Assembly: GCA_030425825.1 (NCBI GenBank)
Contig: JAUHZY010000001.1
Span: 512,551-576,550 of the forward strand
DNA from: Alphaproteobacteria bacterium
Lineage (GTDB): Bacteria; Pseudomonadota; Alphaproteobacteria; JAUHZY01
Direction of reading: 5' to 3'
DNA length: 64,000 nt
The position numbers and the translations under genes were made by a program. Positions 8,365-59,894 of the stretch are shown one piece after another. Numbering within the stretch: position 1 is the first letter of the stretch; each line of letters opens with the position of its first letter. The notes under the pieces are model-generated. The model was not told where the DNA came from and did no database searches. It worked only from the letters and a program-made list of their open reading frames with translations.

Positions 8365-8462
8365 TTTTTTTCCTCAATTTATCTTTTAGGAAAATGATTA
8401 TAGAGAATATTTGATATAAATCAATTAAAATATCCTTAAAAGATACGGTCATTCCCTTTTTG

Positions 8463-8478: not shown

Positions 8479-8511
8479 ATACAGAAGGATTTTTACAAAA
8501 AAGGGGGTTTA

Positions 8512-9459: not shown

Positions 9460-9468
9460 AGTCTGGCT

Positions 9469-11241: not shown

Positions 11242-11333
11242 AGTTTTCCAATATAAAAAATAAGTTGACAGCTTTTGTGTTTTGATCTAAAAAGGATACA
11301 AATAAGAATCATCAAAATAAATCAGGGCTGGGA

Positions 11334-11603: not shown

Positions 11604-11615
11604 AGGAAATAAAAA

Positions 11616-13511: not shown

Positions 13512-13523
13512 AGGAGTTATAAA

Positions 13524-15177: not shown

Positions 15178-15178
15178 G

Positions 15179-31070: not shown

Positions 31071-31074
31071 CGTG

Positions 31075-33210: not shown

Positions 33211-33318
33211 GAGGGCACTCTAACACTTTGTCTTTCAGAAGGCCAGAGGCAGGTTGCCGATAGAAATGTTGCTTTATGGATAATGTTAGGTTAAAAGGGT
33301 TTTGAAAAGGAAAATAAA

Positions 33319-33843: not shown

Positions 33844-33968
33844 GTTTTTCAACAAAACAGACCTCTTATTTTGAAACCTCTTTTTGTAATAAAACACTTG
33901 CTTATTTTTAAGGCATAAAGTATCCTCTTCGGAACAATAAAAGGCATAATGTAAAAAACGAGGTAGGA

Positions 33969-36185: not shown

Positions 36186-36234
36186 GGCATAAACCAAGTA
36201 AAACAAATCATCTGCAACAGCACACATATTCAGC

Positions 36235-36432
36235 ACGCGACTGCGCGACGTTGCTGGTGCAACGAAAGCCTGCGTGGGTGAGCGCTAAATATAAATAAAG
36301 AGCGCGACTGCGCGACGTTGCTGGTGCAACGAAAGCCTGCGTGGCGAACGCTAAATATAAATAAAGAGCGCGACTGCGCGACGTTGCTGGTGCAACGAAA
36401 GCCTGCGTGGCGAACGCTAAATATAAATAAAG
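36235..36432. repeat. three tandem 66-bp direct repeats (iteron-like) immediately upstream of the terS-like gene
   Basis: agcgcgactgcgcgacgttgctggtgcaacgaaagcctgcgtggcgaacgctaaatataaataaag repeated three times. Each unit contains the inverted repeat cgttgc-TGGTG-gcaacg and a TATAAAT-like box. Confidence 0.85.
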
Positions 36433-36454
36433 AGCAAGGGAGGTACTTACACTT

Positions 36455-36691
36455 ATGAAAAACAATAATGATAAAAATGAAGTGCAGTCCCTTGCTCGCC
36501 ATTTTACAGAAGATGCGCTGAAAACGCTTGTTGGTATTATGAATGACCCCGAAGCCTCTGTGTCTTCGCGCGTTTCTGCTGCACAAACAATTCTAGATCG
36601 TGGTTGGGGAAAGCTGGGCAGTGGGGCAGCTAAAGATGAGCGTACAGCAGATGTTGTTGCCGAGTTTCTAAGCTGTTTACAAAAAGGGTGA
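36455..36691 (+). CDS. putative phage terminase small subunit-like DNA-binding protein (78 aa)
   Basis: AAGGGAGG RBS. Motif RVSAAQTILDRGWGK resembles the conserved LDRGWGKP segment of many small terminases. Positioned upstream of terL. Confidence 0.4.
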   Translation: MKNNNDKNEVQSLARHFTEDALKTLVGIMNDPEASVSSRVSAAQTILDRGWGKLGSGAAKDERTADVVAEFLSCLQKG

Positions 36692-37337
36692 TACTTTCTG
36701 CAACACTCTCTTTTTTTATCGCCAAACAAAAGATCAGCTTGTTAGCATGAAAAGGTGTTTTCAGTAATAATGTTAGTCGCATTCTTAAAATCGAGGATGG
36801 AGAAGATGCTGAAAAACAAATCACTGCGTTCACTGTTTGCCCTTAACAGATCCGTTTATCAGGGCGATGTCATGAGACTGGGAAAAAACTTTACAGGGCG
36901 TAATGCGCCACCTGTAAGACCATATCGTCTGATGGCTTTTTCTGCGCAAACAACACCTGTATCAATTGTGAAGTAATTTTCCTGAACGCCTTATGGCAGT
37001 GATGTACAAAAAAGGTGGGACCCCAAACAATTTCCCTAAAGGAAGAAGGAGGAGGGAGCAGGGAAGACCATCTGAAGCCCCTTTCTGTAGGCTTAACGCG
37101 ACTCATTCATGAGGGTTTATTATTTTCATCGCTATTCAACCAACAAAGTTGTTTTTTGTACTTTTTATTTTTCCGTGGAAGTAAGAGTAAAGCCTCCCTT
37201 TCTTACCTCCCTTTTCTTTTTTTAGTGAATCGGATTATATCATAGATAAATCGGAAAAGGAAACACTTTTTTCTCTTTTTTTTATAAATTCACATTGTTT
37301 TCATATAAAACAATAAGATAATTGGAAACTTTATAGG

Positions 37338-37775
37338 TAACGTTCAAACGCCACGCAGGCTTTGCGTTGCACTGGCAACGTCGCGCGGTCGCGCTCTGGC
37401 TATGCGCGCAGTTGCAGGCAGTGGGGGTGTGTAAGTGTTACGGGGAGGTGTTTCTTTTTTCATTCCCTCTCCCCTGGCGGGAGAGGGTGAGGGGGAAGTA
37501 TGCTGTGAGGAAGAGAGATGTGTCATAAAGATTATCTCACCCTCATCCCAACCTTCTCCCATCAAGGGAGAAGGAGATTATAGGGGAGAGAGGATGTTGA
37601 TTATAAAGCACAGCAGCCACACCGCCAGATGCAGCGCGCATAGCCAGAGCGCGACCGCGCGACGTTGCCAGTGCAACGCAAGCCTGCGTGGCGTTTGAAC
37701 GTTATACATAACTCCAGAGCGCGACCGCGCGACGTTGCAGGTGCAACGTAAAGCCTATGTGGCGTCTGAACGTTA
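37338..37775. repeat. palindromic element: 72-bp terminal inverted repeats (37338-37409 and 37634-37704) flanking a hairpin-rich 220-bp core, plus one additional direct copy of the same about 55-bp repeat unit (37716-37775)
   Basis: taacgttcaaacgccacgcaggctttgcgttgcactggcaacgtcgcgcggtcgcgctctggctatgcgcgc is the near-perfect reverse complement of 37634-37704. The unit is related to the 66-bp iterons at 36235-36432. The core contains CCCTCTCCCctggcGGGAGAGGG and CCTTCTCCCatcaaGGGAGAAGG hairpins. Confidence 0.8.
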
Positions 37776-37816
37776 TCTATAATTACGCGCAGCGTATAGC
37801 GTGCGTTATAAATTAC

Positions 37817-47686: not shown

Positions 47687-48481
47687 ATGCAAAACATGAT
47701 TTTTGACATTCCAGGACAACCAAGATTAACAATCCCCAAAACAAATGGCCCTGCCATTCGCCAAGCTATGGAGGCACAGCGCAAAGCAATCCAAGCGCAG
47801 AATCAGTGGAATCACTCTGATGCAGCATATGAATTTATTAAAAGGCATGAGAAGTATCGCCCTTATCCATATTTGGATACGAGAGGAAATGTGACCATAG
47901 GTGTTGGGACGATGGTGCCTGATGAATCTGTGATGATAGATACGCCGCTTGTTGATTTGCTTGGCAACCCTGTATCAAGAAAACAGCGTGGACAAGTCTT
48001 TCGTGATATAAAGGCATTGTGGCAACAAGAGAAATATAGAAACTTACAAGCGGAATATTTCCCAAATCCACATAAGGTGACTTTACCTGAGTCAGAAGCC
48101 GATCGTATCGCAAGAAAGTATATAGAAGAGGAACTGCCTCACATTAAAAATAAATTCCAAGGATTTGATACTCTGCCTGATGCTGCAAAAACAGCTATTA
48201 TCGACATGCAGTATAACTTAGGAGATGCAGGATTTCAGCGGACGGTTCCTGAGGGATCGAACAAAACGCCGTGGCCAAATTTTTATAGTGCAATTGATGC
48301 GCGTGATTTTGAAACTGCTGCCCGTGAAGCAAGTCGTAAAGGCATTGGCCTTGGGAGGAATCAAGAAACCCAGCAATTATTGATTGACGCCGCCAAAGAA
48401 TGGCAGCAACAGCAATCACAAAAGCCTGTTGCGCCAACACCAGAAGCGCAAGAGAAAGGCGGACTGTTATCTTTTTTCTAG
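47687..48481 (+). CDS. GH24 (T4-type) lysozyme-like protein, copy 1 of 3
   Basis: FIKRHEKYRPYPYLDTRGNVTIGVGTMV matches the catalytic E...D...T...TIGxG motif of phage-type lysozymes. AAGGAG RBS. The start is set at MQNMIFDIPGQ. Confidence 0.7.
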   Translation: MQNMIFDIPGQPRLTIPKTNGPAIRQAMEAQRKAIQAQNQWNHSDAAYEFIKRHEKYRPYPYLDTRGNVTIGVGTMVPDESVMIDTPLVDLLGNPVSRKQRGQVFRDIKALWQQEKYRNLQAEYFPNPHKVTLPESEADRIARKYIEEELPHIKNKFQGFDTLPDAAKTAIIDMQYNLGDAGFQRTVPEGSNKTPWPNFYSAIDARDFETAAREASRKGIGLGRNQETQQLLIDAAKEWQQQQSQKPVAPTPEAQEKGGLLSFF

Positions 48482-48955
48482 AGGTTTATGGTGATACACT
48501 GAGAAGTGCCTGTCATAAGTCGGTTGATAATCATAGCGACTTTTAAGCCTTCTTAAAGCATCACCATAATATTTCCATGATCCAGTAGAGATTGAGACTC
48601 TTTCCCAAGGTTGGCGAAAGCTCGAGATTTCTAGTCGTTTAAGAAAGCCTTCTTTTACGCTGGGTGGCAAGTCAGTATAGTCAAAATCGTCTGGAAATAT
48701 TCTATAGCACTGCAAAACCAGAACTTTTTCACCATTGTGAATAAGGTAGGGACAATTCAGGTCGAAAACTTCATATTTATTTTCATAGGTGATTTTTGTT
48801 TGTGAGACTGTCATTTTGCCACCTGCTGCAGGGCTTGGATGCCACACGCCATAAAACTCTTTATTTTTAAAAGGTTCTGTTAAAGGCGGATCGGGTGTAT
48901 CTGCATAGATACCCAGTACAATTAAACCCACAAAGAACATCAGAAAATATTTCAT
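48467..48955 (-). CDS. secreted partner protein with signal peptide (candidate immunity protein or lysozyme inhibitor), copy 1
   Basis: MKYFLMFFVGLIVLGIYADTPDPPLTEPFKNKEFYGVW is conserved in all three copies. The 3' end overlaps the lysozyme gene by 15 bp, convergently. Confidence 0.6.
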   Translation of the reverse strand: MKYFLMFFVGLIVLGIYADTPDPPLTEPFKNKEFYGVWHPSPAAGGKMTVSQTKITYENKYEVFDLNCPYLIHNGEKVLVLQCYRIFPDDFDYTDLPPSVKEGFLKRLEISSFRQPWERVSISTGSWKYYGDALRRLKSRYDYQPTYDRHFSVYHHKPLEKR

Positions 48956-49024
48956 GGATCAAGTTTAACCACAGGTTGTGATGTGTGCAATCTGTTTGTT
49001 TTATTAACCAAGGAGAGATTTTAA
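48956..49024. promoter_or_regulatory. conserved divergent intergenic spacer (family A), copy 1
   Basis: accacaggttgtga..gcaatctgtttgttttattaaccaaggagagattttaa shared with 50243-50311 and 51548-51613. Confidence 0.6.
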
Positions 49025-49786
49025 ATGAAAAATATGATTTTCGATATTCCAGGACAGGCAAGGCGTGTTATTCCTTTGTCTGATAAGCAAGCTATTATAA
49101 ACGCACAAATTGCACATAGAGAGGCAATGGATCAACAGAAAGCACAGGGCAGCTGGAAATATTTGGACCAGGTATTTGATTTTATCAAAGAACATGAAGG
49201 AGGAATTGTTCCAGCTCCATATCTTGATACAACAGGAAATGTAACAGTTGGTATTGGTCACAGAGTGCCAAATGCGCAAGCTATGACCAAGTTGCCTTTA
49301 GTAAATCCATTAGGTCACGATGTATCTGATGAAGTAAAACGACAGGCTTTTGATGCTGTGTATGGATTGCGTGAAAAACAAGAATATCACAATAAAATTG
49401 CTAAAAAGTTTCCAAGCCCATACAAGGTTCGATTACCAGATTCAGAAGCAGTACGCATTGCCAAAGAGTATATCAACAATGAATGGCCTTTGGTTCAGCA
49501 CAAGTTTAATGGTTTTGATACATATCATCCTAAAGCACAAATGGCTGTGATGGATATTCAGTATAACATCGGGAATAAAAATTTTTCTCAAGAGAAATGG
49601 CTAAAATTTTATGATGCAATGGCACGGCGAGATTATGAGTCTGCGGCCGTAGAGTCTCATCGCAAGGATGTTGGTCAAAATCGGAATGAAGAGGTGCGAA
49701 AGCTATTGCTTGAAGCAGCAGAAGAAACACGTGCGCAAACAAAGTCGCCTTCGAATGATGTTGATTTACTTGGAGAATGGTTTTGA
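49025..49786 (+). CDS. GH24 lysozyme-like protein, copy 2
   Basis: FIKEHEGGIVPAPYLDTTGNVTVGIGHRV. The N-terminal 45 aa are identical to copy 3. Confidence 0.7.
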   Translation: MKNMIFDIPGQARRVIPLSDKQAIINAQIAHREAMDQQKAQGSWKYLDQVFDFIKEHEGGIVPAPYLDTTGNVTVGIGHRVPNAQAMTKLPLVNPLGHDVSDEVKRQAFDAVYGLREKQEYHNKIAKKFPSPYKVRLPDSEAVRIAKEYINNEWPLVQHKFNGFDTYHPKAQMAVMDIQYNIGNKNFSQEKWLKFYDAMARRDYESAAVESHRKDVGQNRNEEVRKLLLEAAEETRAQTKSPSNDVDLLGEWF

Positions 49787-50242
49787 TGTTGTTGAGGTTG
49801 GGCGATAGTAATATCCTTCAAAACATTTTGAGTAGAGCATGTCTGGTTGGTAGGAAATACCAAAGAAAGCACCCGCATATGTATCGCAATAGCTGACTGA
49901 AAGGCTAACACCTTTATCTAAGTATCGAGGTTTTTTGATTGCGAGGCGAATCAATTCATACTTTGTTTCGCCGTAAGGGTATTTGACGAGGCATTTCAAA
50001 ATAACGTCTTGTTTCCCGTTATACAAAAGATAGGGACATTCTTCATATGAATCGTTCTTTTCAAATGAGATGCCTGTCTGTGTGATGGTCATTTTCCCCG
50101 CGGCAAGAACAGACGTGCTGCTTGCTTCCCACACACCATAAAACTCTTTATTTTTAAAAGGTTCTGTCAAAGGTGGATCGGGAACATCTGCGTAGATGCC
50201 CAGCACAATAAGACCAACAAAAAACATCAGAAAATACTTCAT
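49766..50242 (-). CDS. secreted partner protein, copy 2
   Basis: Same signal peptide and N-terminal 40 aa as copies 1 and 3, with a diverged C-terminal part. 21-bp convergent overlap. Confidence 0.6.
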   Translation of the reverse strand: MKYFLMFFVGLIVLGIYADVPDPPLTEPFKNKEFYGVWEASSTSVLAAGKMTITQTGISFEKNDSYEECPYLLYNGKQDVILKCLVKYPYGETKYELIRLAIKKPRYLDKGVSLSVSYCDTYAGAFFGISYQPDMLYSKCFEGYYYRPTSTTSKPFSK

Positions 50243-50311
50243 GTAATCAGCATAACCACAGGTTGTGACTTGCGCAATCTGTTTGTTTTATTAACCAAGG
50301 AGAGATTTTAA
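50243..50311. promoter_or_regulatory. conserved divergent intergenic spacer (family A), copy 2
   Basis: taatcagcataaccacaggttgtgacttgcgcaatctgtttgttttattaaccaaggagagattttaa contains the palindrome TTGCGCAA. Confidence 0.6.
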
Positions 50312-51085
50312 ATGAAAAATATGATTTTCGATATTCCAGGACAGGCAAGGCGTGTTATTCCTTTGTCTGATAAGCAAGCTATTATAAACGCACAAATTGT
50401 ACATAGAGAGGCAATGGATCAACAGAAAGCACAGAAAAACTGGAAGCATTTAGACAATACGTTTGATTTTATTAAGATTCATGAGGGAGATATTTCACAA
50501 ACACCTTACCTTGATACGACAGGCAATGTAACAATCGGTATTGGACATAAAGTAACAGATGCCGAAGCGATGGTGAAACTGCCATTGGTTAATCCGCTGG
50601 GACATGATATTTCAGATGATATGAAGCGACAGGCTTATCATGAGATTTATGAATTGCGTAATAAGCCTGAGTATAAGAATCGTGTAAATGGTTCATTTCC
50701 TAATCCTTACAAAGTAAAATTACCAGATGCAGAAGCTGTCCGTATGGCAAAAGAATACATCAATAATGAGCTGCCTTTAGTTCAAGATAAGTTTAATGAT
50801 TTTGATACTCTTCATCCCAAGGCACAAACAGCGATTATGGATATTCAGTACAATATTGGAAATAAAAATTTTTCTAAAGAGAAGTGGCCAAAGTTTTATA
50901 CGGCAATAGATCAACGTGACTATGATACCGCAGCGGCAGAATCTCATCGTAAGGATGTTGGGATAGAGCGAAATAAAGAAGTAAAAAGGTTGCTGCTTGA
51001 GGCAGCAGAAGAAATAAAGGCGGGTGCGATCGCAGCACCAACTCAAAACAATAGCACTAGTGGATTACTTGGTGAATGGTTTTGA
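50312..51085 (+). CDS. GH24 lysozyme-like protein, copy 3
   Basis: FIKIHEGDISQTPYLDTTGNVTIGIGHKV. Confidence 0.7.
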   Translation: MKNMIFDIPGQARRVIPLSDKQAIINAQIVHREAMDQQKAQKNWKHLDNTFDFIKIHEGDISQTPYLDTTGNVTIGIGHKVTDAEAMVKLPLVNPLGHDISDDMKRQAYHEIYELRNKPEYKNRVNGSFPNPYKVKLPDAEAVRMAKEYINNELPLVQDKFNDFDTLHPKAQTAIMDIQYNIGNKNFSKEKWPKFYTAIDQRDYDTAAAESHRKDVGIERNKEVKRLLLEAAEEIKAGAIAAPTQNNSTSGLLGEWF

Positions 51086-51547
51086 AGGAGGGGATGACTC
51101 TTTGTAGTAATATCCGCCACCACAATTTGAATATTTCATATATGGTTGTGAGGTAATGCCAAAAAAAGCACCGCTATATGTTTCGCAAAACCTTACATGA
51201 AGCATAATATTTTCATTTGAGTATTTTGGCCTTTCGAGAGAAAGACGTATAAGCATCAATTCTTGTGGCGCAAAGCCATCAGGATAATATGTCTTACATT
51301 GAAGGACAATATCTTGTGAACCATTATACAAAAGATAAGGGCATTTTTCGTAGGAATTGTTCTTTTCAAACGAAATCTTCGTTTGCGCAATGGTTATTTT
51401 ACCTGCGGGTCGAACCGTATTACTTATAGGTCTCCACACGCCATAAAATTCTTTATTTTTAAAAGGCTCTGTCAAAGGTGGATCGGGAACATCTGCGTAG
51501 ATGCCCAGCACAATAAGACCAACAAAAAACATCAGAAAATACTTCAT
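51065..51547 (-). CDS. secreted partner protein, copy 3
   Basis: MKYFLMFFVGLIVLGIYADVPDPPLTEPFKNKEFYGVW. Confidence 0.6.
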   Translation of the reverse strand: MKYFLMFFVGLIVLGIYADVPDPPLTEPFKNKEFYGVWRPISNTVRPAGKITIAQTKISFEKNNSYEKCPYLLYNGSQDIVLQCKTYYPDGFAPQELMLIRLSLERPKYSNENIMLHVRFCETYSGAFFGITSQPYMKYSNCGGGYYYKESSPPSKPFTK

Positions 51548-51613
51548 GTAATCAGCATAACCACAGGTTGTGACTTGCGCAATCTGTTTATTTTATTAAC
51601 CAAGGAGGAAAAA
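51548..51613. promoter_or_regulatory. conserved divergent intergenic spacer (family A), copy 3, here driving the portal gene
   Basis: Near-identical to 50243-50311 up to the RBS (aaccaaggagg). Confidence 0.6.
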
Positions 51614-53605
51614 ATGTCTAAAAATGATATCCAAACAATTTTAAAGCAAGAAATTGATCAATCGCTGTCCTATATGGGCGGAGAATTGGCACATTCGCGT
51701 AAAAAGGCGATGGAATATTACCTAAGCAAACCATTTGGCAACGAGGTTGAAGGCCGCAGCCAGGTTGTGTCTAGCGATGTTGCTGATACAATTGAATGGA
51801 TCTTGCCATCACTGCTTAAGATCTTTACATCCAGCGACAAGGTTGTGCGCTTTGACCCTGTTGGCGCAGAAGATGAGGCCGTTGCTGATCAAGCCACAGA
51901 TTACGTTAACCATATCTTTCAGAAGGATAATCCTGGTTTTGTGATTTTGTATACGTGGTTCAAAGATGCTTTGCTGCAAAAAAACGGCTTTGTGAAGTAT
52001 TATTGGCAAAAGAAAAAAGATATTTCGAAAGAAACATTTAAAGCATTAAGTGAAGATGCGTATGCACTGTTGCTTGCCGAAGTAGAGGCCAATAGCGACC
52101 TCAAAATAAAATCAAGAAAAGCAAATAAAATTAAGGAGAAAGAAGATGAATCTAATTCAAAAGATAAAGAAAGTAAAAACATTTCTGCAACATACGATGT
52201 TGTGGTTGAGCGACATATTGAAAAGAGCCGTATCTGCGTTAAAAACGTTAGCCCAGAAGAGTTTCTTATACATCCTGACGCGAAAACGATAGATGATGCT
52301 GCTTTTGTCGCACATCGCTTGGAGCGTTCGATTTCTGACCTTATCGCATCTGGTTATGATCGTAAAACAGTTGAAGCCTTAAGTGACGATGATGGCTTAC
52401 ATTTCAATGAAGAGCGTCAAGCACGACGTTTGTTCGATGACACGCCCTTGCATGAACGCAGCGATAACACACGCAAAGTCCCTGTATATGAGTGCTATAT
52501 TCGCCTTGATGAAGATGGAGATGGTATAGCAGAGCTTCGCAAAGTCACAGTTGCAGGGGCTGAACTAGAGGTTTTAGATAACGAAGAAGTTGACTTTATT
52601 CCTTTTGCTAGCCTGTCACCTGTGTTGATTCCACATCAATTCTATGGCTTATCTATCGCAGATCTTGTGATGGACTTGCAGCTCATTAAATCTACTGTGA
52701 TGCGCCAAGTGATTGATAATATGTATCTGACAAACAATAACCGTCATGTTGTCGTAGATGGACAAGTGAATCTGGATGATTTGATGACTTCACGTCCAGG
52801 TGGTGTGGTGCGTGTGAAAAACCCTGCTGCCATTCAAGCACTAAATGCGCAAAGCATGCCTGAAAAAGCTTTTGGCTTGCTGCAATATATTGATGGTGTC
52901 CGCGAAGAACGCACAGGCGTTACCAAGAATATGCAGGGCATGGATACAAATACGCTGAACAAAACAGCGAGCGGAATAAACCAAATCATGACTGCTGCAC
53001 AGCAACGGATTGAACTGATTGCGCGTGTATTTGCAGAAACAGGCGTGAAGGATTTATTCTCGAACTTGTTAAAGCTGGTTGTTAAATACCAAGATCAACC
53101 CCGCATGATTCGTCTTCGTAATGAGTGGGTGCCGATGGATGGTTCACAGTTTGACCCTGATATGGATGTCAGCGTTTCAGTTGGTTTAGGCACAGGAAAC
53201 AAAGATCAATCTTTGGCACATTTACAGAATATTTTGAACATCCAAAAAGAAGCTATTTCTGTACAAGGAGGTGTTTTTGGACCACTTGTTACTTTGGATA
53301 ATATTCATAATACACTTGCAAAAATGGTTGAAAATGCAGGCTTGAAAAATGTTGCTGAGTTCTTCCAAAAACCTAATATGGAACAGCTTATGGCGCAAGA
53401 AAATCAAAAAGGTACGGCGCCAAATCCACAGGCACAAGCCATGCTTGAGCAATTGAGGCTGGCATCAGAGAAAATCCGCATTGATGGCATGAAAGCTGAG
53501 ACAGATCGCTTGAAGGCCGAAACTGATGCGGCAATCAAAGAGCGTGAAATTCGCTTGAAAGAAGAAGCCGCACGACAAAAAACAGAAGAAGCTTCTGATG
53601 TTTAA
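51614..53605 (+). CDS. phage portal protein
   Basis: 663 aa. The start MSKNDIQTILKQE follows an AAGGAGG RBS; the ORF-track start at 51383 runs back through the partner gene and spacer. Portal-like central region and a C-terminal coiled coil. Gene order terS-like, terL, ..., portal. Confidence 0.6.
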   Translation: MSKNDIQTILKQEIDQSLSYMGGELAHSRKKAMEYYLSKPFGNEVEGRSQVVSSDVADTIEWILPSLLKIFTSSDKVVRFDPVGAEDEAVADQATDYVNHIFQKDNPGFVILYTWFKDALLQKNGFVKYYWQKKKDISKETFKALSEDAYALLLAEVEANSDLKIKSRKANKIKEKEDESNSKDKESKNISATYDVVVERHIEKSRICVKNVSPEEFLIHPDAKTIDDAAFVAHRLERSISDLIASGYDRKTVEALSDDDGLHFNEERQARRLFDDTPLHERSDNTRKVPVYECYIRLDEDGDGIAELRKVTVAGAELEVLDNEEVDFIPFASLSPVLIPHQFYGLSIADLVMDLQLIKSTVMRQVIDNMYLTNNNRHVVVDGQVNLDDLMTSRPGGVVRVKNPAAIQALNAQSMPEKAFGLLQYIDGVREERTGVTKNMQGMDTNTLNKTASGINQIMTAAQQRIELIARVFAETGVKDLFSNLLKLVVKYQDQPRMIRLRNEWVPMDGSQFDPDMDVSVSVGLGTGNKDQSLAHLQNILNIQKEAISVQGGVFGPLVTLDNIHNTLAKMVENAGLKNVAEFFQKPNMEQLMAQENQKGTAPNPQAQAMLEQLRLASEKIRIDGMKAETDRLKAETDAAIKEREIRLKEEAARQKTEEASDV

Positions 53606-54364
53606 ACAACAAGGTGTTTTTGGCAGAACACTTGAAGTAAGAACAGGAGGTCATGCTTCTGTTTCGCCTCGTACAATGGAACGTCGTGTAACAGATCCAA
53701 GTCCTGCGCTTCAAGACTTTGCCACGAAGGAGGGCAGCCAAGAGGCTGTCCCTTCTCATGACATCACCTATGTCGAAGGCGGTGCGTTGAATGATTATCC
53801 ATCACCCTCTGTTGGTGAAGGACAAAGCAGCAGCAATAGATGGAATGACTACGCCCCAGATCCCTTCGGCTGGGACAGTTTACCGGGGTCAGAACACCTC
53901 CCTTCAAAGCGTGGCTGGACATTGCCATCAGGTAGGTCCATCACAGCGCCATTCCCAGGACAAGAAGAAAGCTATTTCCGTTGGAGTGAGAATAAAATGG
54001 CACAACATCAGCGAAATATTGATGCATTAGATGCTGCCTATACTGTGTTCATGGAGGGAGAGGCACGCCAGCATGCTTCGGAACAACGAGATACAATGAG
54101 ACGCCAAGCTTTATACAACATCAATAACGGTATGGGGGCTGTGACGGCGGGTATGATATGGCACAACAAAGAAGAGAAGCAGGCCAGGTGAGTTTTTCTA
54201 GAACGACGCGTGATGTTATCAAAAGCCAAGCTTCCATGTTTGGTGCTAATAAAATACTTGGTGATTACGCAAATCCTGTGATCCAAAATTTGGGAGAGGA
54301 TATCATCAAAGACAGAATCAATCAGATAGGAGATTATCTGAGGAATCTAGGCCCAATTTACTAG
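53598..54364 (+). pseudogene. glycine-zipper toxin-like gene, deletion/frameshift derivative (two ORF fragments, 53598-54191 and 54158-54364)
   Basis: The N-terminal part matches the 56260 and 58047 proteins (TYVEGGA...WNDY.PDPFGWDSLPGSEHLPSKRGWTLPSGRSITAPFPGQEESYFRWSENK) up to GMGAVTAGMI. The C-terminal match (SQASMFGANKILG...INQIGDYLRNL) then continues in the +1 frame. The glycine-zipper segment is missing. Confidence 0.55.
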
Positions 54365-55195
54365 CTAATAAGTTTGGTCAATTTTTTGGAAAAACACTTG
54401 AATTGGCATACCTGGACGCCAGTTTCCAGCTAAACTCTTGATCTTTTCTTTCTGCTTTAAGGAAAGTCGCTGACGAGATTTTTCACGAAGAGACAAGACT
54501 TCCTTATCATTCAAAACAGACTCTTTATATTTAGGAAAAAACAAATGAGGATACAGGTCTCTTAAAAGATCGCTTTTTTGCTTATATGCTATGTCTGCAA
54601 TATCAAGAAGAAATTGTACTTTGAGTGGTTTGTGAAGACTTTTGTACTCTTTTTCATCCATAATAAAAGCGATCAGAAAGATACCGTTTAAATCGCCTTC
54701 ATCGGCGGCTTGCACAAAGTATTTTAAAGCATCTTGTGGTGTTTCACTTTCATATAAAAAGAATAGCCCAAGGTCAATCAAAGCACCGCCATCCTTTTTC
54801 TCTGCTGCCTTCTGTGTCCATTTCCATGCTTGTTTTGGGTCTTGCTTGACGGCAATGCCTTCGCTGTAAAAACGACTTATCTTATTCATGGCTTCTGGAT
54901 CACCTGATCTTGCGGCTTCTTGATATAGTGCGAAAGCCTTGGCAGGATTCTTTGCAACGCCCAAGCCATGTTCCCAAATAAGACCCTCTAATGTCTGAAA
55001 ACGTGGATGATCAGCAGAAGATGCCAGTACAAGCACCTGGTCATATTGTTTGTTATCAAAAGCAGTGAGTGCATTATCCCACAGCTGTTGGTCAATGGGC
55101 TGATCATAAGGGCTTGATTGATGAGAGGTATAAAACACACCTGCCGCAACAAGACATAAAACAAAAACAAAGGGGAAGAGAAGTTTCTTTTTCAT
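54365..55195 (-). CDS. Sel1-repeat protein with signal peptide, copy 1
   Basis: MKKKLLFPFVFVLCLVAAGV signal. Sel1-like repeats LEGLIWEHGLGVAKNPAKAFALYQEAARSGDPEAMNKISRFYSEGIAVKQDPKQAWKWTQKAAE. Confidence 0.7.
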   Translation of the reverse strand: MKKKLLFPFVFVLCLVAAGVFYTSHQSSPYDQPIDQQLWDNALTAFDNKQYDQVLVLASSADHPRFQTLEGLIWEHGLGVAKNPAKAFALYQEAARSGDPEAMNKISRFYSEGIAVKQDPKQAWKWTQKAAEKKDGGALIDLGLFFLYESETPQDALKYFVQAADEGDLNGIFLIAFIMDEKEYKSLHKPLKVQFLLDIADIAYKQKSDLLRDLYPHLFFPKYKESVLNDKEVLSLREKSRQRLSLKQKEKIKSLAGNWRPGMPIQVFFQKIDQTY

Positions 55196-55259
55196 AAAGC
55201 AACTTTAACAACCAGCAATTGAAAAAACTATCTTTTATTTTACCAATGGAGACCACCTA
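55196..55259. promoter_or_regulatory. conserved divergent intergenic spacer (family B), copy 1
   Basis: ataaagcaactttaacaaccag.aattgaaaaaactatcttttatttta recurs at 56200, 57987 and 59727. Confidence 0.6.
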
Positions 55260-55400
55260 TGTCGAAGGCGTTGTGGTACAAAGCAGCATCACTTCCTTTT
55301 ACAAGCATATCGCCAGCTATTGGGACGACGGCAAGCCATATTATACGACCTGCTGTCAAACAAGGAGTTGATGAGATATATAATTATTTTGACTATTAGT
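55255..55400 (+). pseudogene. decayed 5' fragment of a toxin-like gene
   Basis: METTYVEGVVVQSS... matches the N-terminus NDETTYVEGGAVQSS of the 56260 and 58047 genes, then degenerates and stops. Confidence 0.4.
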
Positions 55401-55401
55401 C

Positions 55402-56199
55402 TTATTGGATGGCGGCTGGGATTCTTATAAATGTTCCAGGACGCCATCTTTGAGCTTTATATCTTAAATCGGCAAGCTCTTTATCATTTAGATATTTGGG
55501 CAGGCTCTTTTCCAGCATTTTATAGTTTTTGTTTCTTCTTTCTTTATAAGGCGCAGGAAAAAAATACGAGCGGTCTGGTCCAAATCCAGATACATCTGTA
55601 AAGGCATTATTTACCTTGAGAATGTAGTATAAATAGGCACTGCGTTTGTAATCTTGAGATTCAAATGCATCGATGGCCTCTTCAAGTAGCATTGTCGAGT
55701 TGCCTGAATAAGCAGATCTTTGACGATAGTTATTGTATTTTTCACTTCTTTTGGGAACTGTTAATGTTAAATAAAAGTACTTGTCTGCGAAGGATAAAGT
55801 TTTTGATTTCTCAAGCCAATGGATAAGCTGGGTATCTGAAAGAAGAGGGGTGTTATCAAGCATATAAGCGATAACAATAAAAAGCGCATTTTCATCGCCT
55901 TCATCGGCACTCTTTTTTAAATTCTCGATATTTTGGCCTGTTAAATCATGCGTTTTTTTTATCCATTTCTGCATTTCAATACTGTCAGGTGAAATGTTTT
56001 TGTGCTTTAAATATCCAACGACTTTCCAGGCAGCATAAACATCCCCTGATTGCGCCTGCTCTTTAAGTTGTTTCAAGTTTTTTTGGTAAGAGTACCATGG
56101 AAGAATATGGCTAAAGGTCACAAAGAAAACAATGCAAAGAATAATGCCGCGCAATCTTACTCTGGTTGGGGGTTGAAGTGGGTTCTGATATTTTTTCAT
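55402..56199 (-). CDS. Sel1/TPR-like repeat protein, divergent family member
   Basis: N-terminal TM/signal. Helical repeat composition. The C-terminal RWRPGTFI resembles the NWRPG and DWRIG tails of the other copies. Confidence 0.55.
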   Translation of the reverse strand: MKKYQNPLQPPTRVRLRGIILCIVFFVTFSHILPWYSYQKNLKQLKEQAQSGDVYAAWKVVGYLKHKNISPDSIEMQKWIKKTHDLTGQNIENLKKSADEGDENALFIVIAYMLDNTPLLSDTQLIHWLEKSKTLSFADKYFYLTLTVPKRSEKYNNYRQRSAYSGNSTMLLEEAIDAFESQDYKRSAYLYYILKVNNAFTDVSGFGPDRSYFFPAPYKERRNKNYKMLEKSLPKYLNDKELADLRYKAQRWRPGTFIRIPAAIQ

Positions 56200-56259
56200 A
56201 AAGCAACTTTAACAACCAGTAATTGAAAAAACTATCTTTTATTTTAAGGAGGAACACCC
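56200..56259. promoter_or_regulatory. conserved divergent intergenic spacer (family B), copy 2
   Basis: ataaagcaactttaacaaccagtaattgaaaaaactatcttttattttaaggaggaacaccc. Confidence 0.6.
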
Positions 56260-57147
56260 ATGAACAATGACGAGACCACCTATGTCGAAGGCGGCGCGGT
56301 ACAAAGCAGCAACAATAGCTGGAACGACTATGACCCAGATCCTTTCGGCTGGGACAGTCTGCCAGGGTCAGAACATTTACCCTCAAAGCGTGGCTGGACA
56401 TTGCCGTCAGGTAGGTCCATCACAGCACCATTCCCAGGCCAAGAAGAAAGCTATTTCCGTTGGAGTGAGAATAAGATGGCACAACATCAGCGAAATATTG
56501 ATGCATTAGATGCTGCCTATACTGTGTTCATGGAGGGAAGTCATACACAAATAGATCGTGTCAGAAGCTTACAAGGCTCATATCCACCTGCCCATATTAA
56601 CGCACCTCTTTTTGGGAAGATGCGTCAATATGTTCCGCAACAACCCAGGACTTTAACGCCAGAACAGCAAAGTGCAATGAGACGCCAAGCTTTATACAAC
56701 ATCAATAACGGTATGAGTGCTGTGACGGCGGGTATGATTGGGATGAGTCGTGGTGCGTCTTTGGGTGTTCCTGGCATGGTCGCGGGTGGATTGTTTGGGG
56801 CTTTTAACGGTTATCAGGCGAGTCATGCAATTCAAAACAATCCCATAAATGCTTTAGATTTGGCAAGTCGATACGTCCCAATAGGAAAGGCGGTTGATAT
56901 AGGAAAAGATCTAAGTATTAGTGCTTTTAATCAATATCGCGAAAATGGTCATATAGATGCGTCTCAAGTTTTACGAGATACGGCTGTCAATCAAACTGTG
57001 GGAAGGGGAGTCAAAAGTATTCTGGGAGATAATTTGTCGCCAATTTCTGCGCTTGGAACAGAGAATATTTTGGGAGACCGTATCAATCGTGGTCTTAAAA
57101 AAATAGATGAGTATCTTTACCAAAAAGGGTATATCACTGGATATTAG
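56260..57147 (+). CDS. glycine-zipper membrane toxin-like protein, copy A (295 aa)
   Basis: AAGGAGG RBS. W/P-rich N-terminal domain. Glycine zipper GMSAVTAGMIGMSRGASLGVPGMVAGGLFGAFNG. Variable C-terminus. Confidence 0.6.
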   Translation: MNNDETTYVEGGAVQSSNNSWNDYDPDPFGWDSLPGSEHLPSKRGWTLPSGRSITAPFPGQEESYFRWSENKMAQHQRNIDALDAAYTVFMEGSHTQIDRVRSLQGSYPPAHINAPLFGKMRQYVPQQPRTLTPEQQSAMRRQALYNINNGMSAVTAGMIGMSRGASLGVPGMVAGGLFGAFNGYQASHAIQNNPINALDLASRYVPIGKAVDIGKDLSISAFNQYRENGHIDASQVLRDTAVNQTVGRGVKSILGDNLSPISALGTENILGDRINRGLKKIDEYLYQKGYITGY

Positions 57148-57986
57148 TATTGAAGGTTCATTGCCTTAAACTCTTTTTCAAACCCTGAGCCAATCTTCCA
57201 GTTTTCGGCGAGACGTTTTATTTGTTCTTTTTGTTGAGTTGTAAGCTTTTTGTCTAACTCTTTTTTTAATTGATGCAATTCAGGAAATGAGCTTGAAGAG
57301 AATCCTTTTTCAATATTAAAAAACAAATCTGGATAACGTTCACGCAGCAGAAAAACGCCTCTTTTTCCTTGAACAGAATCACTTAAATGAAGAAAAAAGA
57401 AGCGAACCAAATCAATTTGTGGATAGTCTTGGAAAGCACCATAATAAAATGCTAAAGCCCCGAAAGCAGCGGCACTTCCCATTTGCGCAGCTGCGGATAT
57501 TTTTTTATTTGCGTAAACAAGATGATCTTCACGTTCTTTATTTTTTATATGGTAATAGCCTATCATAAAAAGCGCGGAATAATCCTTTTTCTCTGCTGCC
57601 TTCTGTGTCCATTTCCATGCTTGTTTTGGGTCTTGTTTGACGGCAATGCCTTCGCTGTAAAAACGACTTATCTTATTCATGGCTTCTGGATCACCTGCCT
57701 TTGCGGCTTCGTGATATAATGTGAAAGCCTTGGCAGGATTCTTTGCAACGCCCAGGCCATGCTCCCAAATAAGACCCTCTAATGTCTGAAAACGTGGATG
57801 ATCAGCAGAAGATGCCAGCACAAGCACCTGGTCATATTGTTTGTTATCAAAAGCAGTGAGTGCATTATCCCACAGCTGTTGGTCAATGGGCTGATCATAA
57901 GGGGTTGATTGATGAGAGGTATAAAACACACCTGCCGCAACAAGGCATAAAACAAAAACAAAGGGGAAGAGACGTTTCTTTTTCAT
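57144..57986 (-). CDS. Sel1-repeat protein with signal peptide, copy 3
   Basis: The N-terminal 150 aa are near-identical to copy 1 and the C-terminus is diverged. 4-bp convergent overlap with the toxin gene. Confidence 0.7.
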   Translation of the reverse strand: MKKKRLFPFVFVLCLVAAGVFYTSHQSTPYDQPIDQQLWDNALTAFDNKQYDQVLVLASSADHPRFQTLEGLIWEHGLGVAKNPAKAFTLYHEAAKAGDPEAMNKISRFYSEGIAVKQDPKQAWKWTQKAAEKKDYSALFMIGYYHIKNKEREDHLVYANKKISAAAQMGSAAAFGALAFYYGAFQDYPQIDLVRFFFLHLSDSVQGKRGVFLLRERYPDLFFNIEKGFSSSSFPELHQLKKELDKKLTTQQKEQIKRLAENWKIGSGFEKEFKAMNLQY

Positions 57987-58046
57987 AAAGCAACTTTAAC
58001 AACCAGTAATTGAAAAAACTATCTTTTATTTTAAGGAGGAACACCC
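57987..58046. promoter_or_regulatory. conserved divergent intergenic spacer (family B), copy 3
   Basis: Identical to 56200-56259. Confidence 0.6.
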
Positions 58047-58871
58047 ATGAACAATGACGAGACCACCTATGTTGAGGGCGGCGCGGTACAAAGCAGCAAC
58101 AATAGCTGGAACGACTATGATCCAGATCCTTTTGGTTGGGACAATTTACCGGGTTCAGAATACCTGCCTTCAAAGCGCGGCATGTCATTGCCATCGGGCC
58201 GGTCAATCACGGCACCATTTCCTGGACAAGAAGAAAGTTATTTTAAATGGTCAGAGAGCAAGATAGCTGAACATCAACACAATATTGAAGCGTTGGACTC
58301 TGCTTACTCAGGCTTTGTTGAAGGCGTACAAAGTCTAGTACCGCAGTCACAGACCCTAACACCACAACAACAGAGATTGATACGTCAGCAAGCCATGTAC
58401 AATATCAATAATGGTATGGGGGCGGTGACAGGTGCGATGTTTGGCGCTAGTCGTGGTGCTCCGCTGGGGGTGCCTGGCATGGTTGCTGGCGGATTACTTG
58501 GTGCAGGGGCAGGGTATTTACAAACTCAACATATCCAGCAAAATATACCAGAAATCATGCAAGATGTGCAGCAGCCAGAGAATATTGCAGGAGCCGCCAT
58601 ATCATTATTGCCGCAAGCAAGAGGGACCGCACATATTTCTCGAGCAGCTTGGGATGCGGCAGCTAGTTTTTCTCGTCAGAAGAGAGAAAACAATTTAAGT
58701 TTCACAAAAACTGCAAGGAATATTATTGAGGGACAAGCATCAATGTTTGGCGTCAACAAAATTCTTGGTGGCGCTGCTAATCCTGTAGTTCAAAACTTTG
58801 GAGAAGCTGCAATCAGGGAAAGGATAAATCAGATCGGAGAATATCTAAGAGTCTTAAAATCAAGATATTGA
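58047..58871 (+). CDS. glycine-zipper membrane toxin-like protein, copy B (274 aa)
   Basis: GMGAVTGAMFGASRGAPLGVPGMVAGGLLGAGAGY. The N-terminal 90 aa are conserved with copy A. Confidence 0.6.
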   Translation: MNNDETTYVEGGAVQSSNNSWNDYDPDPFGWDNLPGSEYLPSKRGMSLPSGRSITAPFPGQEESYFKWSESKIAEHQHNIEALDSAYSGFVEGVQSLVPQSQTLTPQQQRLIRQQAMYNINNGMGAVTGAMFGASRGAPLGVPGMVAGGLLGAGAGYLQTQHIQQNIPEIMQDVQQPENIAGAAISLLPQARGTAHISRAAWDAAASFSRQKRENNLSFTKTARNIIEGQASMFGVNKILGGAANPVVQNFGEAAIRERINQIGEYLRVLKSRY

Positions 58872-58874
58872 TTT

Positions 58875-59726
58875 TTAGTTCAAATAATCAGTTGAAACGC
58901 CCATCGCTTTAAACTCTTTTTCAAACCCAGTGCCAATACGCCAATCCTGAGCCAGTTTTTTTGCTAGCTTTTTTTGCTCAGGCGTTGTTTTTTGAGAGAG
59001 TTCTTTTAGAAAGATCGCTAACCGAGGATCTTTCTTTTCGTCTTGCACAAAAGTTTTGAGAAAAAGATGTGGATAGCGCTCACGCAAAAGATTTTTGCCT
59101 CTTTTGTCTTTAACTAAGTCGTTTAAATTAAGAAAAAACTGAGAAAGCACAAAGTGATTAGGGAAGTCCTCAAACTGTCCCATTAAAATTGAAAGCATTT
59201 TAAAAGATTCATCACTACCATAATTTGCCGCTGCACTAAAATTTTTCAAAGAATAGTGTAAATTATCTTGAATTTGATCATTGTAAATAAAAATTAAGGC
59301 ATATTCTGTTAAAGCAAAATAATCATTTTTTTCTGCTGCGCGTTGCACCCACATCCATGCTTTTTCTTTGTCTTGTTGCACGTGCGTGCCGTCATGATAA
59401 AAACGACTTATTTTATTCATGGCTTCTGGATCACCTTTTTTTGCGGCTTTGTGATAAAGGGTGAAAGCTTTGCTAAGGTCTTTTTCAACACCAAGACCAT
59501 GCTCCCACATCAGACCTTCTAATGTCTTAAAGCGAGGATGTTTGGTGGATGTAGTAAGGCCACGTACTGTCGCGTATTGCTTTTGGTCAAAGGCGTGTAA
59601 AGCAGCGCTCCATGCCTGTTGGTCAATAGGTGCATCGTAACGTTTTGATTCATAATCAATATAGGCCCATCGAGCGGCCAAAGTAGACAGTAAAATAACA
59701 AGACTGAGAAGCAGTTTCTTTTTCAT
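58875..59726 (-). CDS. Sel1-repeat protein with signal peptide, copy 4
   Basis: LEGLMWEHGLGVEKDLSKAFTLYHKAAKKGDPEAMNKISRFYHDGTHVQQDKEKAWMWVQRAAEK. Confidence 0.7.
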   Translation of the reverse strand: MKKKLLLSLVILLSTLAARWAYIDYESKRYDAPIDQQAWSAALHAFDQKQYATVRGLTTSTKHPRFKTLEGLMWEHGLGVEKDLSKAFTLYHKAAKKGDPEAMNKISRFYHDGTHVQQDKEKAWMWVQRAAEKNDYFALTEYALIFIYNDQIQDNLHYSLKNFSAAANYGSDESFKMLSILMGQFEDFPNHFVLSQFFLNLNDLVKDKRGKNLLRERYPHLFLKTFVQDEKKDPRLAIFLKELSQKTTPEQKKLAKKLAQDWRIGTGFEKEFKAMGVSTDYLN

Positions 59727-59795
59727 AAAGCAACTTTAACAACCTGCAATTGAAAAAACTATCTTTATTTTAAGGAGAACAAGAAGGCGATTTAC
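59727..59795. promoter_or_regulatory. conserved intergenic spacer (family B), copy 4, followed by a degenerate gene start
   Basis: ataaagcaactttaacaacctgcaattgaaaaaactatctttattttaaggagaac, with no intact downstream toxin ORF. Confidence 0.5.
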
Positions 59796-59894
59796 AGCTA
59801 TTATTGGTGGTAAGAGATACACCTTGGTGAACGTCAGGAAGAAGTGCTTTAGTGATATGCTTGATTCTTGTTTTAAATACTTCATACTAAACAA

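Follow-up and report, generated by a model that had tools for sequence, protein, structure and literature searches.

The contig JAUHZY010000001.1 of an alphaproteobacterium of the JAUHZY01 lineage (GenBank assembly GCA_030425825.1) contains, within positions 512,551 to 576,550 (64,000 nucleotides, hereafter the window, whose own numbering is used throughout), an array of paired genes which, with about even confidence, we regard as polymorphic toxin/immunity-type cassettes descended from a phage gene located directly downstream of the portal gene. The array occupies 53.6-59.8 kb and comprises, as had been described in an initial annotation of this DNA, four units, each of them consisting of a plus-strand gene that converges on a minus-strand gene. 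The 3' ends of the two genes abut or overlap. A constrained N-terminus, exchangeable C-termini, co-inheritance of the variable half of the partner, loss of plus-strand genes and an adjoining array of muramidase-like genes make a toxin/immunity interpretation fit better than the alternatives that are weighed below.

Organization of the array

The plus-strand genes of the array are paralogues (tblastn E 1e-39 to 1e-82; phmmer E 1e-34 to 1e-70), of which two of four, P0001 and P0002, are intact; the minus-strand partners are intact in all four units. The N-terminal and glycine-zipper peptides quoted in the initial annotation were found in P0001 (56260-57147) and P0002 (58047-58871). The features of the array are listed below (aa, amino acids; E, Pfam E-value; ORF, open reading frame; RBS, ribosome-binding site; TM, transmembrane).

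53598-54191, plus strand: 5' part of copy 1, decayed; the ATG of the ORF overlaps the portal stop codon, and the conserved N-terminal domain lies at 53760-54158
54158-54364, plus strand: P0011, the 3' remnant of copy 1 in another frame, 59% identical to the C-terminus of P0002
54365-55195, minus strand: partner 1 (P0006, 276 aa), Sel1-like repeat protein (Sel1, E 1.2e-17) whose N-terminus forms a hydrophobic anchor, intact
55196-55252: spacer copy 1, with the RBS and ATG of the next plus-strand gene deleted
55249-55400, plus strand: ghost of a family gene, ~150 bp, in which the initial ~14 conserved codons (ETTYVEG..QSS) and a piece of the C-terminus (..GVDEIYNYFDY) survive
55402-56199, minus strand: partner 2 (265 aa), divergent relative of the Sel1 partners with an N-terminal TM anchor and a C-terminal W-R-P-G motif, intact
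56200-56259: spacer copy 2; AAGGAGG lies 7 nt ahead of the ATG, and TTAACA-18-TATCTT is a weak promoter-like site
56260-57147, plus strand: P0001 (295 aa), intact; N-terminal domain, helices, glycine zipper 161-184, C-terminal type A
57144-57986, minus strand: partner 3 (P0005, 280 aa), Sel1-like repeat protein (Sel1, E 2.9e-13) whose gene overlaps P0001 by 4 bp at the 3' ends
57987-58046: spacer copy 3, identical to spacer copy 2 at 57 of 57 positions
58047-58871, plus strand: P0002 (274 aa), intact; glycine zipper G125-G156, C-terminal type B
58875-59726, minus strand: partner 4 (P0007, 283 aa), Sel1-like repeat protein (Sel1, E 6.8e-16)
59727-59785: terminal spacer copy 4; homology to the family genes stops directly behind AAGGAG and no plus-strand gene follows

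The pair P0002/partner 4 is also present, with 100% identity, on a Logan contig of run ERR3428545. Decay of the plus-strand genes turned out to be more extensive than initially described, as the ghost at 55249-55400 (recognized from repeat detection, ORF translations and alignment) had been described as the one toxin copy reduced to a 5' fragment. A remnant it is, but it retains a piece of the 3' end as well, and copy 1 (53598-54364) is decayed too: it has suffered an internal deletion of ~70 codons that removed the entire glycine zipper, as well as a frameshift, and the ATG of the Shine-Dalgarno-plus-ATG start found in the amplified copies reads AAG in it.

The units are separated, as initially reported, by a near-identical spacer. 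It is AT-rich and ~57 bp long, with 49-57 of 57-59 positions identical between its copies at 55196, 56200, 57987 and 59727. The spacer at 59727 had been counted as the fifth; however, there are only four, since copy 1 has no spacer in front and lies directly behind the phage portal gene. Identity of the spacer is kept at about 90-100% even where the flanks are unrelated or only ~50-60% identical, and the flanks to the left of 56200 and 59727 and to the right of 59727 are at the chance level. A scan for sigma-70-like promoters yielded 29 sites versus 30.4 in shuffled sequence, i.e. no enrichment, hence a regulatory role of the spacer is argued from its conservation alone; a scan of the window against Rfam revealed no RNA family. 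The sole element shared by the spacers with the region upstream of copy 1 is GAAGGAGG, which, together with the end of the homology at AAGGAG, suggests that the first duplication took place via this microhomology.

A polymorphic family with a constant N-terminal domain

A word-indexed search of 5.8 billion protein clusters found the plus-strand family only in one NCBI contig of 1,662,365 bp, and an exhaustive HMMER search of 1.84 billion representatives added P0008 (76 aa) and P0009 (207 aa) from the same genome, where P0132 (289 aa) was reached via the cluster of P0008. With P0004 (310 aa), at least eight copies or fragments of the family are present in one 1.66-Mb genome. The only foreign homologue is P0010 (408 aa, E 6e-9), encoded on a 26-kb metagenome contig (L011), and scans of genome, metagenome and viral contigs with patterns of the N-terminal domain found nothing.

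The N-terminal ~75 residues, (M)NNDETTYVEGG...WNDY.PDPFGWDSLPGSEHLPSKRGWTLPSGRSITAPFPGQEESYFRWSE, are common to all copies and rich in Pro, Ser, Gly and Trp. They are followed by a helical stretch and then by at least five C-terminal types that are unrelated in alignments (P0001, P0002 together with copy 1, P0004, P0009 and P0132), so that the proposed polymorphism of the family, with one invariant N-terminal domain, is borne out. The N-terminal domains of P0001 and P0002 exhibit a synonymous divergence (dS) of 1.37 and a nonsynonymous divergence (dN) of 0.066, i.e. a dN/dS of 0.05, and the remaining part of the protein has dN 0.59. Because dS is this high at such a low dN/dS, conservation of the N-terminus reflects purifying selection on old paralogues and not recent copying. 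None of the plus-strand proteins has a hydrophobic N-terminus or a signal peptide.

The family had been proposed to be one of glycine-zipper toxins. GxxxG zippers are indeed present in three of the five C-terminal types (P0001, G161-G184; P0002, G125-G156; P0132, from G191 onward), but not in the others, and no toxin domain was detected in any of them. Matches of the zipper type to Pfam were below the threshold (P0001 to Bacteriocin_IIc, E 0.0066; P0002 to TraT, E 0.0038, and to Gly-zipper_Omp, E 0.02). The sequence search of the PDB gave a single match, the alpha-pore-forming toxin component SmhB, with a non-significant E of 1.2, which we do not use as evidence. Residues 5-9 of P0001, P0002, P0004, P0132 and copy 1 (56272, 58059 and 53765 in the window) read ETTYV, EITYV or DITYV followed by EGG, which we take to be similar to the TonB box of colicins, pesticin and TonB-dependent receptors, and the DPFGWDS motif in the N-termini of the family presumably bears a faint likeness to the TolB box of colicin E9.

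Sel1-repeat partners

All the partners had been described as Sel1-repeat proteins. This holds for three of the four, which match Pfam Sel1 with E 1e-13 to 1e-17, but partner 2 (55402-56199) has no Pfam match and is only 26% identical to the other partners in the alignment, even if it contains Sel1-like 'GD..A' motifs and the C-terminal 'W-R-P-G'. A profile of the four partners matches many solved Sel1-like repeat (SLR) proteins in the PDB. The AlphaFold2 model of P0005 (predicted local distance difference test, pLDDT, 81; predicted TM-score 0.74) comprises a helix at residues 6-25, five to six helical hairpins and a C-terminal helical region. Used as a query in Foldseek, it retrieves generic SLR proteins, including Pa5087 (5jkp), PA5088 (5jjo) and the related PA5086 (6lch), but an Oxalobacter protein and the Legionella proteins LceB and LpnE match it better, and Helicobacter HcpC is also among the best matches. 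As these other SLR proteins score above the immunity proteins, the fold is to be regarded as generic.

The N-termini of the partners, KKK(R/L)LFPFVFVLCLVAAGVF and LRGIILCIVFFVTFSHILPW, consist of a K/R-rich stretch followed by a hydrophobic helix of 16-20 aa with a Kyte-Doolittle hydropathy of ~2.0-2.1 (1.97 at residues 16-34 in partner 2), and they contain no lipobox. They are predicted to be signal anchors that would place the repeat domain in the periplasm. Since the partners carry such an anchor and the plus-strand proteins have no such segment, the two proteins of a pair appear to be made in different compartments. The initial annotation had offered immunity or chaperone function for the Sel1 partners; a cytoplasmic chaperone would be ruled out by the predicted N-terminal anchor in combination with plus-strand proteins that lack a signal peptide.

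Mosaic structure and decay

Alignment of whole units revealed that units 1 and 3 are 87-100% identical in the 5' part of the toxin-like gene and 97-98% identical in the 5' half of the partner and the spacer, but only 31-64% identical over the contiguous 3' halves of the toxin-like gene and the partner. Between units 3 and 4, identity of 95-100% is confined to the spacer and the initial ~160 nt of the toxin-like gene. Owing to the convergent orientation, the two variable halves are contiguous and bounded by conserved arms; the resulting block, composed of the toxin 3' part and the partner 3' part, is the footprint expected of cassette exchange. The recombinational diversification suggested in the initial annotation is thereby indirectly supported, and the mosaic appearance of the Sel1 partners is confirmed: the N-terminal halves of partners 1 and 3 differ by dS 0.10, whereas their C-terminal halves are saturated, with dN 0.90. 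The near-identity of N-terminal halves had been ascribed to the partners in general; it applies to partners 1 and 3 (97-98% at the DNA level) and not to partner 4, which is diverged over its whole length (~53% aa identity), or to partner 2 (26%).

The plus-strand gene has decayed twice, in copy 1 by a deletion that took exactly the zipper, and each time the partner has been kept intact, which is the pattern of orphan immunity genes.

Linkage to a phage packaging module

The array begins at the stop codon of a portal gene that the initial annotation did not mention, with the ATG of the copy 1 ORF overlapping that stop (..GATGTTTAA..). A packaging module (35637-40715, 51614-53605) comprises the following genes:

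51614-53605, plus strand: SU10-type phage portal protein (663 aa; Pfam SU10_portal, E 6e-224; phrog_1216), intact
39339-40715, plus strand: terminase large subunit, terL (458 aa; Pfam Terminase_6N; phrog_2), intact, 11 kb upstream of the portal gene
36455-36691, plus strand: small ORF similar to the terminase small subunit gene terS (78 aa), directly behind a 66-bp tandem repeat present three times

The assignment of the last ORF is based on a motif that we take to be terS-like, with no hidden Markov model (HMM) match behind it. The repeat in front of it (36236-36435, three units of 66 bp, 97% matches) is GC-rich in comparison with its surroundings and could be pac-like or regulatory. A 182-aa phage-like ORF located upstream in the module has a prophage homologue.

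The metagenome contig L011, which carries P0010, is syntenic with the window at 31-33 kb and 35.6-36.7 kb, then in terL and the portal gene, and finally in a gene of the family. The insertions of the window are absent from it; in the window the module is split by a 461-aa ORF and an 11-kb insertion. P0010 lies 69 bp behind the orthologous portal gene. Next to it, and truncated by the contig end, is a convergent gene; the C-terminus of its product aligns with the C-terminal motif of the partners at the equivalent position, although weakly (hhalign E 0.005). The portal proteins are 74-79% identical (dS 1.68, dN 0.20, dN/dS ~0.12) and the terL proteins 86-87% (dS 2.3, dN 0.09, dN/dS ~0.04), which is more than the 54-65% found for adjoining chromosomal genes. 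Low dN/dS, saturated dS and conservation above that of the neighbours imply that terL and the portal gene are kept by selection and are not rotting, and such selection suggests domestication of the packaging module.

In the 64-kb window no capsid or tail gene was detectable, nor were there markers of type I, IV, V, VI or VII secretion systems (T1SS, T4SS, T5SS, T6SS, T7SS); the linked machinery amounts to the terS-like ORF, terL and the portal gene. As judged from protein identity, the same genome contains L073 (on a Logan contig of ERR3428545), an ordinary-looking prophage that belongs to the same lineage and has genes for a single-stranded DNA-binding protein, a cI-like repressor, terS, terL (76% identical), a portal protein (53% identical) and then proteins of 96 and 342 aa. 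There is no family member in L073, the post-portal genes of which have no BLASTP similarity to the family; this prophage might supply capsids and tails in trans.

The best relatives of the portal protein come from Alphaproteobacteria, Dongiaceae and Rhodospirillaceae. In the portal tree the proteins from the window, L011, L074 and the resident prophage are joined with a bootstrap of 96%, the order inside this clade being unresolved. L074 (positions 1-5926, from the metagenome-assembled genome Alphaproteobacteria GCA_054385355.1) has its portal gene amid chromosomal genes (sigma-70, glycosyltransferases), its upstream side being cut by the contig end. A minus-strand gene for a signal-peptide protein precedes the portal gene, and an overlapping plus-strand gene follows it, its product being disordered at the N-terminus and hydrophobic and Gly-rich at the C-terminus. 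Next come a convergent gene for a signal-peptide protein, a gene for an anchored Sel1 protein on the same strand, and a minus-strand gene without an evident signal peptide. We considered L074 as a third instance of the module and rejected it, as its post-portal gene has no detectable homology to the family and the similarity is one of analogy only. The Bartonella gene transfer agent and run-off replication (GTA/ROR) region, considered on account of the small genome, ~40% GC and alpha-type flagellins, was likewise set aside, because the family is absent from all other genomes; in the Bartonella agent, BaGTA, the genes for terminase, portal and capsid lie side by side (PMC3610622).

A second array and other neighbouring genes

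Directly upstream of the portal gene, at 47687-51547, lies a second array of the same design, which was not mentioned in the initial annotation either:

47687-48481, 49025-49786 and 50312-51085, plus strand: T4-lysozyme-like genes without a signal peptide (Pfam Phage_lysozyme, E 1e-6)
48467-48955, 49766-50242 and 51065-51547, minus strand: signal-peptide proteins of 158-162 aa, each overlapping a lysozyme-like gene 3' end to 3' end

In the lysozyme-like genes the catalytic E, D and T positions are readable in HEG, LDTTG and VTIGIGH, and a match to Pfam Pesticin (E 2.9e-4) was below the cut-off. The ~160-aa partners have near-invariant N-terminal 38 residues (MKYFLMFFVGLIVLGIYADVPDPPLTEPFKNKEFYGVW; dN/dS 0.04-0.05) and a diverged remainder, and L011 carries a homologue of this partner. 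Judged by these sequence features, the interval looks like an array of muramidase effectors and periplasmic inhibitors. Its spacer (48956-49024, 50243-50311, 51548-51613) contains a conserved hairpin with a 10-bp stem (ACAGGTTGTGAC/TTGCGCAATCTGT), a T-run and then an RBS; since the same hairpin spacer precedes the portal gene, the latter occupies the position of a plus-strand gene in the lysozyme array. The repetition of one design next to the Sel1 array, with plus-strand genes lacking signal peptides, partners possessing them and convergent overlap, supports the toxin/immunity interpretation of the latter.

A further peptidoglycan hydrolase, the fourth in the same 10 kb, is encoded at 42667-44730 on the minus strand (687 aa); its N-terminal domain is a GH108 muramidase (E 1e-20), and the C-terminal region contains several hydrophobic Gly/Ala-rich segments (Kyte-Doolittle 2.2). 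The products of the three lysozyme-like genes, P0004 and P0009, i.e. members of two unrelated families, have similar C-termini consisting of a Pro/Ser/Thr/Asn-rich linker and a short Gly/acidic-hydrophobic-aromatic tail (..LLGEWF, ..GLLSFF, ..EGDFW, ..FGLQF), and this common tail could be a sorting or binding signal. Elsewhere in the window, many large ORFs at 7144-17645 and 28041-35495, including a block of six plus-strand genes at 10039-17645, have no match in Pfam, PHROGs or NCBIfam, and the lineage appears to be poorly sampled. Flagellar hook, alpha-type flagellin and RTX genes are located at the start of the window.

Comparison with known systems

Polymorphic toxins at the +1 position of portal genes are known from prophages and prophage remnants (PMC5576092, PMC3482391). 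They comprise the MuF polymorphic toxins of temperate phages described by Jamet et al. 2017 (PMC5576092), and a 'phage DNA packaging' trafficking class was defined by Zhang et al. 2012 (PMC3482391). The locus described here resembles MuF systems in that a gene lies right behind the portal gene in a prophage or its remnant with terminase genes, a conserved N-terminal module is followed by variable C-terminal ones, and a putative immunity gene is adjacent; for MuF toxins, packaging into capsids has been proposed as the route to target cells. The +1 position, a hallmark of MuF toxins that also agrees with the class of Zhang et al., is occupied by copy 1 and P0010, and not by the amplified copies. 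On the other hand, the MuF class is defined by an N-terminal PF04233, PF06152, MuF3 or MuF4 domain, and P0001, P0002, P0004, P0132, P0010 and P0009 gave no match to Phage_Mu_F or Phage_min_cap2 at E up to 10. Unlike in MuF toxins, there is no detectable MuF domain and the C-termini are not known toxin domains. The immunity ORF of MuF systems is small and co-directional, whereas the partners in our array are encoded convergently, span 265-283 aa and are predicted to be exposed to the periplasm. Amplification has turned the unit into a tandem array, equipped with a spacer of its own that carries a putative promoter, and there is no capsid gene nearby. Finally, MuF toxins are found mostly in siphoviruses of Firmicutes, in contrast to a podovirus-type (SU10/LUZ24-like) portal in an alphaproteobacterial host. 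With MuF undetectable, a different immunity layout and an amplified unit, the system is best described as portal-linked and polymorphic-toxin-like but outside the MuF family. Two attributes by which Zhang et al. 2012 recognize polymorphic toxins, a constant N-terminus with diverse C-termini and recombining cassettes with orphan modules, are both present.

Sel1 proteins as immunity factors are also known. Klebsiella possesses five tandem sel1 genes, one of whose products (Sel1E) protects against VgrG4 (PMC7108748). Like Sel1E, Pa5087, PA5088 and the related PA5086, the partners described here exhibit the SLR fold, a length of ~260-280 aa and the occurrence as tandem paralogues beside a toxin or toxin-like gene. 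Unlike them, they are convergent, each has its own toxin-like gene, and the window contains no T6SS gene, VgrG, Hcp, PAAR or Tle/phospholipase. In the initial annotation the pairing was not recognized as a described toxin/immunity family; Sel1 immunity in Klebsiella and Pseudomonas aeruginosa and portal-linked MuF toxins had, however, both been described.

Polymorphic toxins that depolarize membranes by means of a glycine zipper are represented by EsxX of Staphylococcus aureus and LXG-T2 of Streptococcus suis (PMC12744356, PMC12955049). They share with our family a constant N-terminal domain (for trafficking, in their case), a C-terminal GxxxG zipper and a membrane-associated partner, which is an immunity protein in their case. 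They are, however, substrates of the Gram-positive T7SS with LXG domains, of which none was detected here, and in our family the zipper is limited to three of the five C-terminal types.

Pore-forming colicins, colicin M and pesticin reportedly have a convergent immunity gene, whose product is said to act at the inner membrane or in the periplasm, and a disordered N-terminal region followed by the killing domain. The convergent partner and the adjoining pesticin/T4-lysozyme-like muramidases with predicted periplasmic partners are reminiscent of this organization. The differences are that there is no match to a pore-forming, receptor or translocation domain, that the locus is chromosomal and phage-linked and not on a plasmid, and that no lysis gene or SOS box was identified.

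Weighing the toxin/immunity interpretation

Several observations weigh against the interpretation of the array as toxin/immunity cassettes. In motif and hydropathy scans, P0004, P0009 and P0010 contain no zipper or hydrophobic segment, hence membrane activity is not possible as a general property of the family, and even the zipper segments reach only 1.1-1.3 on the Kyte-Doolittle scale, short of what is typical of a classical TM helix. No toxin, immunity or trafficking domain was found in the family with Pfam, PHROGs, PADLOC, the sequence search of the PDB or hhalign, none of the PADLOC defence models matched, and the AlphaFold2 model of P0002 is uninformative (pLDDT 34). The tail of copy 1 is closest to that of P0002 (59%), but the C-terminal halves of the partners are closest between units 3 and 4; likeness of the toxin-like C-termini (units 1 and 4) does not track likeness of the partners (units 3 and 4), and simple pairwise co-variation is absent. 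To these may be added the lack of any visible secretion-system, capsid or tail gene in the window and the fact that gene neighbourhoods of family members were read only for the copies in the window and for P0010. Besides, Sel1 proteins of small-genome host-associated bacteria often target eukaryotic hosts.

The strongest competing explanation, which we nevertheless consider unlikely, is that the plus-strand family is not toxic at all but represents a phage morphogenetic protein (a scaffold, a portal-associated minor head protein or an ejection protein) that was duplicated together with the packaging module, with partners that serve superinfection exclusion or are morons. The initial annotation had named a structural phage protein as the finding that would speak against toxins, and here position and homology point in opposite directions. 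The plus-strand gene (copy 1) is at +1 of the portal gene, its start overlapping the stop codon, as is the analogous, but not demonstrably homologous gene in L074, and in related phages the portal gene is followed by a small ORF and then by a gene for a scaffolding protein of ~330 aa. The family is predicted, by a low-confidence model, to be mostly helical, like scaffolds, and purifying selection on terL and portal means that a particle may still be made. Moreover, the zipper and lysozyme-like proteins resemble channel-forming and peptidoglycan-cutting ejection proteins of podoviruses such as T7 and P22. Homology does not follow suit: no scaffold, MuF or other phage HMM supports the assignment, hhalign comparison with the scaffolds of two related phages, Venkman and UFV-P2, gave a Prob of 0.02%, with the proviso that scaffolds evolve fast and common ancestry may escape such a comparison, and comparison of the family profile with SPP1 gp7/MuF gave 0.23%. 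The family has no similarity to any ORF in ~70 phage and prophage loci with related portals, nor, in BLASTP, to the post-portal genes of the resident prophage, and with no capsid gene adjoining, a scaffold would have no substrate in this place. Nor would one expect at least eight copies of a structural protein with five unrelated C-termini, or its decay beside a periplasmic partner that is kept.

That the plus-strand proteins are effectors against a eukaryotic host, and the Sel1 proteins independent host-interaction factors in the style of Legionella and Helicobacter, the pairing reflecting co-regulation, seems to us quite improbable. Such a reading is in keeping with the small genome (1.66 Mb), with the abundance in the window of large, coiled-coil and charged ORFs without a Pfam or PHROG match, and with the presence of LpnE, LceB and HcpC among the best structural matches of the partner; intracellular bacteria are known to use Sel1-containing toxins against their hosts (Zhang et al., PMC3482391). 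It leaves unexplained, however, the strict one-to-one convergent pairing with overlapping 3' ends, the inheritance of the variable halves as one block and the orphan partners beside decayed plus-strand genes, while the array of muramidases and periplasmic partners points to the bacterial envelope as a target and the N-terminus of the Sel1 partners looks more like an uncleaved membrane anchor than a secretion signal. A functionless, decaying segmental duplication in a dead prophage, for which one could cite the two pseudogenes among the four plus-strand genes and the disrupted state of the prophage remnant, is very improbable, given intact copies with both ORFs open and an N-terminal dN/dS of 0.05 at saturated dS, four intact partners out of four, spacers about 90-100% identical even beside unrelated flanks, and terL and portal genes that exceed the neighbouring chromosomal genes in conservation relative to L011.

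Proposed mechanism

Toxicity, neutralization, the membrane target and the route of delivery are what we infer from the architecture of the array interpreted as toxin/immunity cassettes. The plus-strand protein would be composed of the ~75-aa N-terminal domain, a helical linker and an exchangeable C-terminal module. The N-terminal domain may be a trafficking or targeting module with the same function in all paralogues. The zipper module of P0001, P0002 and P0132 would insert into the inner membrane from the periplasmic side and depolarize or permeabilize it; by analogy with known zipper toxins, membrane depolarization or pore formation from the periplasmic face is the most likely activity of these members. 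The partner would be a periplasm-facing Sel1-like repeat protein anchored in the inner membrane, whose variable C-terminal half may bind and neutralize the cognate toxin module.

The units probably arose by tandem duplication at the AAGGAG microhomology. Homologous recombination in the conserved arms (partner 5' half, spacer and toxin 5' part) would then swap the block consisting of the toxin 3' half and the partner 3' half, and toxin genes would be lost by internal deletion, with immunity genes staying behind as orphans. For delivery there are two candidates. One is packaging dependent on the capsid and portal, as proposed for MuF toxins, to which the linkage and the selection on terL and portal point. 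The other is lysis-dependent release with colicin-like uptake, suggested by analogy from the convergent immunity layout and from what we take to be a TonB-box-like motif.

A more specific version of the first candidate, to which we assign a low probability, is that the podophage packaging module (terS-like ORF, terL and portal) has been domesticated as a device for delivery of protein toxins and, lacking capsid or tail genes beside it, is preserved by purifying selection in two or more related alphaproteobacteria, with the N-terminal domain as a portal- or capsid-targeting signal that loads the cargo. The cargo would consist of the zipper pore-formers encoded downstream of the portal gene and the muramidases encoded upstream. 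Particles might be built in trans, e.g. by the resident prophage with the 76% identical terL, and they would eject the cargo into the periplasm of adjacent cells, kin being shielded by the periplasmic Sel1 and ~160-aa partners.

Conclusions

Phage-linked polymorphic toxins with immunity proteins are a kind of system that is already known. What is new is the N-terminal domain, the convergent pairing with Sel1 proteins as one exchangeable block, the amplification into an array, and the two arrays that flank one domesticated portal gene. The classification of polymorphic toxin systems is based on the trafficking domains at their N-termini. Apart from one metagenome contig, the N-terminal domain found here has no relative among 5.8 billion clustered proteins and 1.8 billion representatives, so that a new trafficking class would have to be set up for it.

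The phage-packaging route has to date been a bioinformatic proposal for MuF toxins, and the portal linkage in two genomes provides a second, independent case for the trafficking of protein toxins by the packaging machinery. If the module does act as a delivery device, it would represent, in a Gram-negative bacterium and without MuF, a parallel to the still hypothetical MuF route that relies on a new trafficking domain. Even if the proteins are not toxins, the locus would be unusual as a lone packaging module maintained by selection. The presence of both variable halves in one swappable block makes the array a tidy model for the co-diversification of toxin and immunity specificity.

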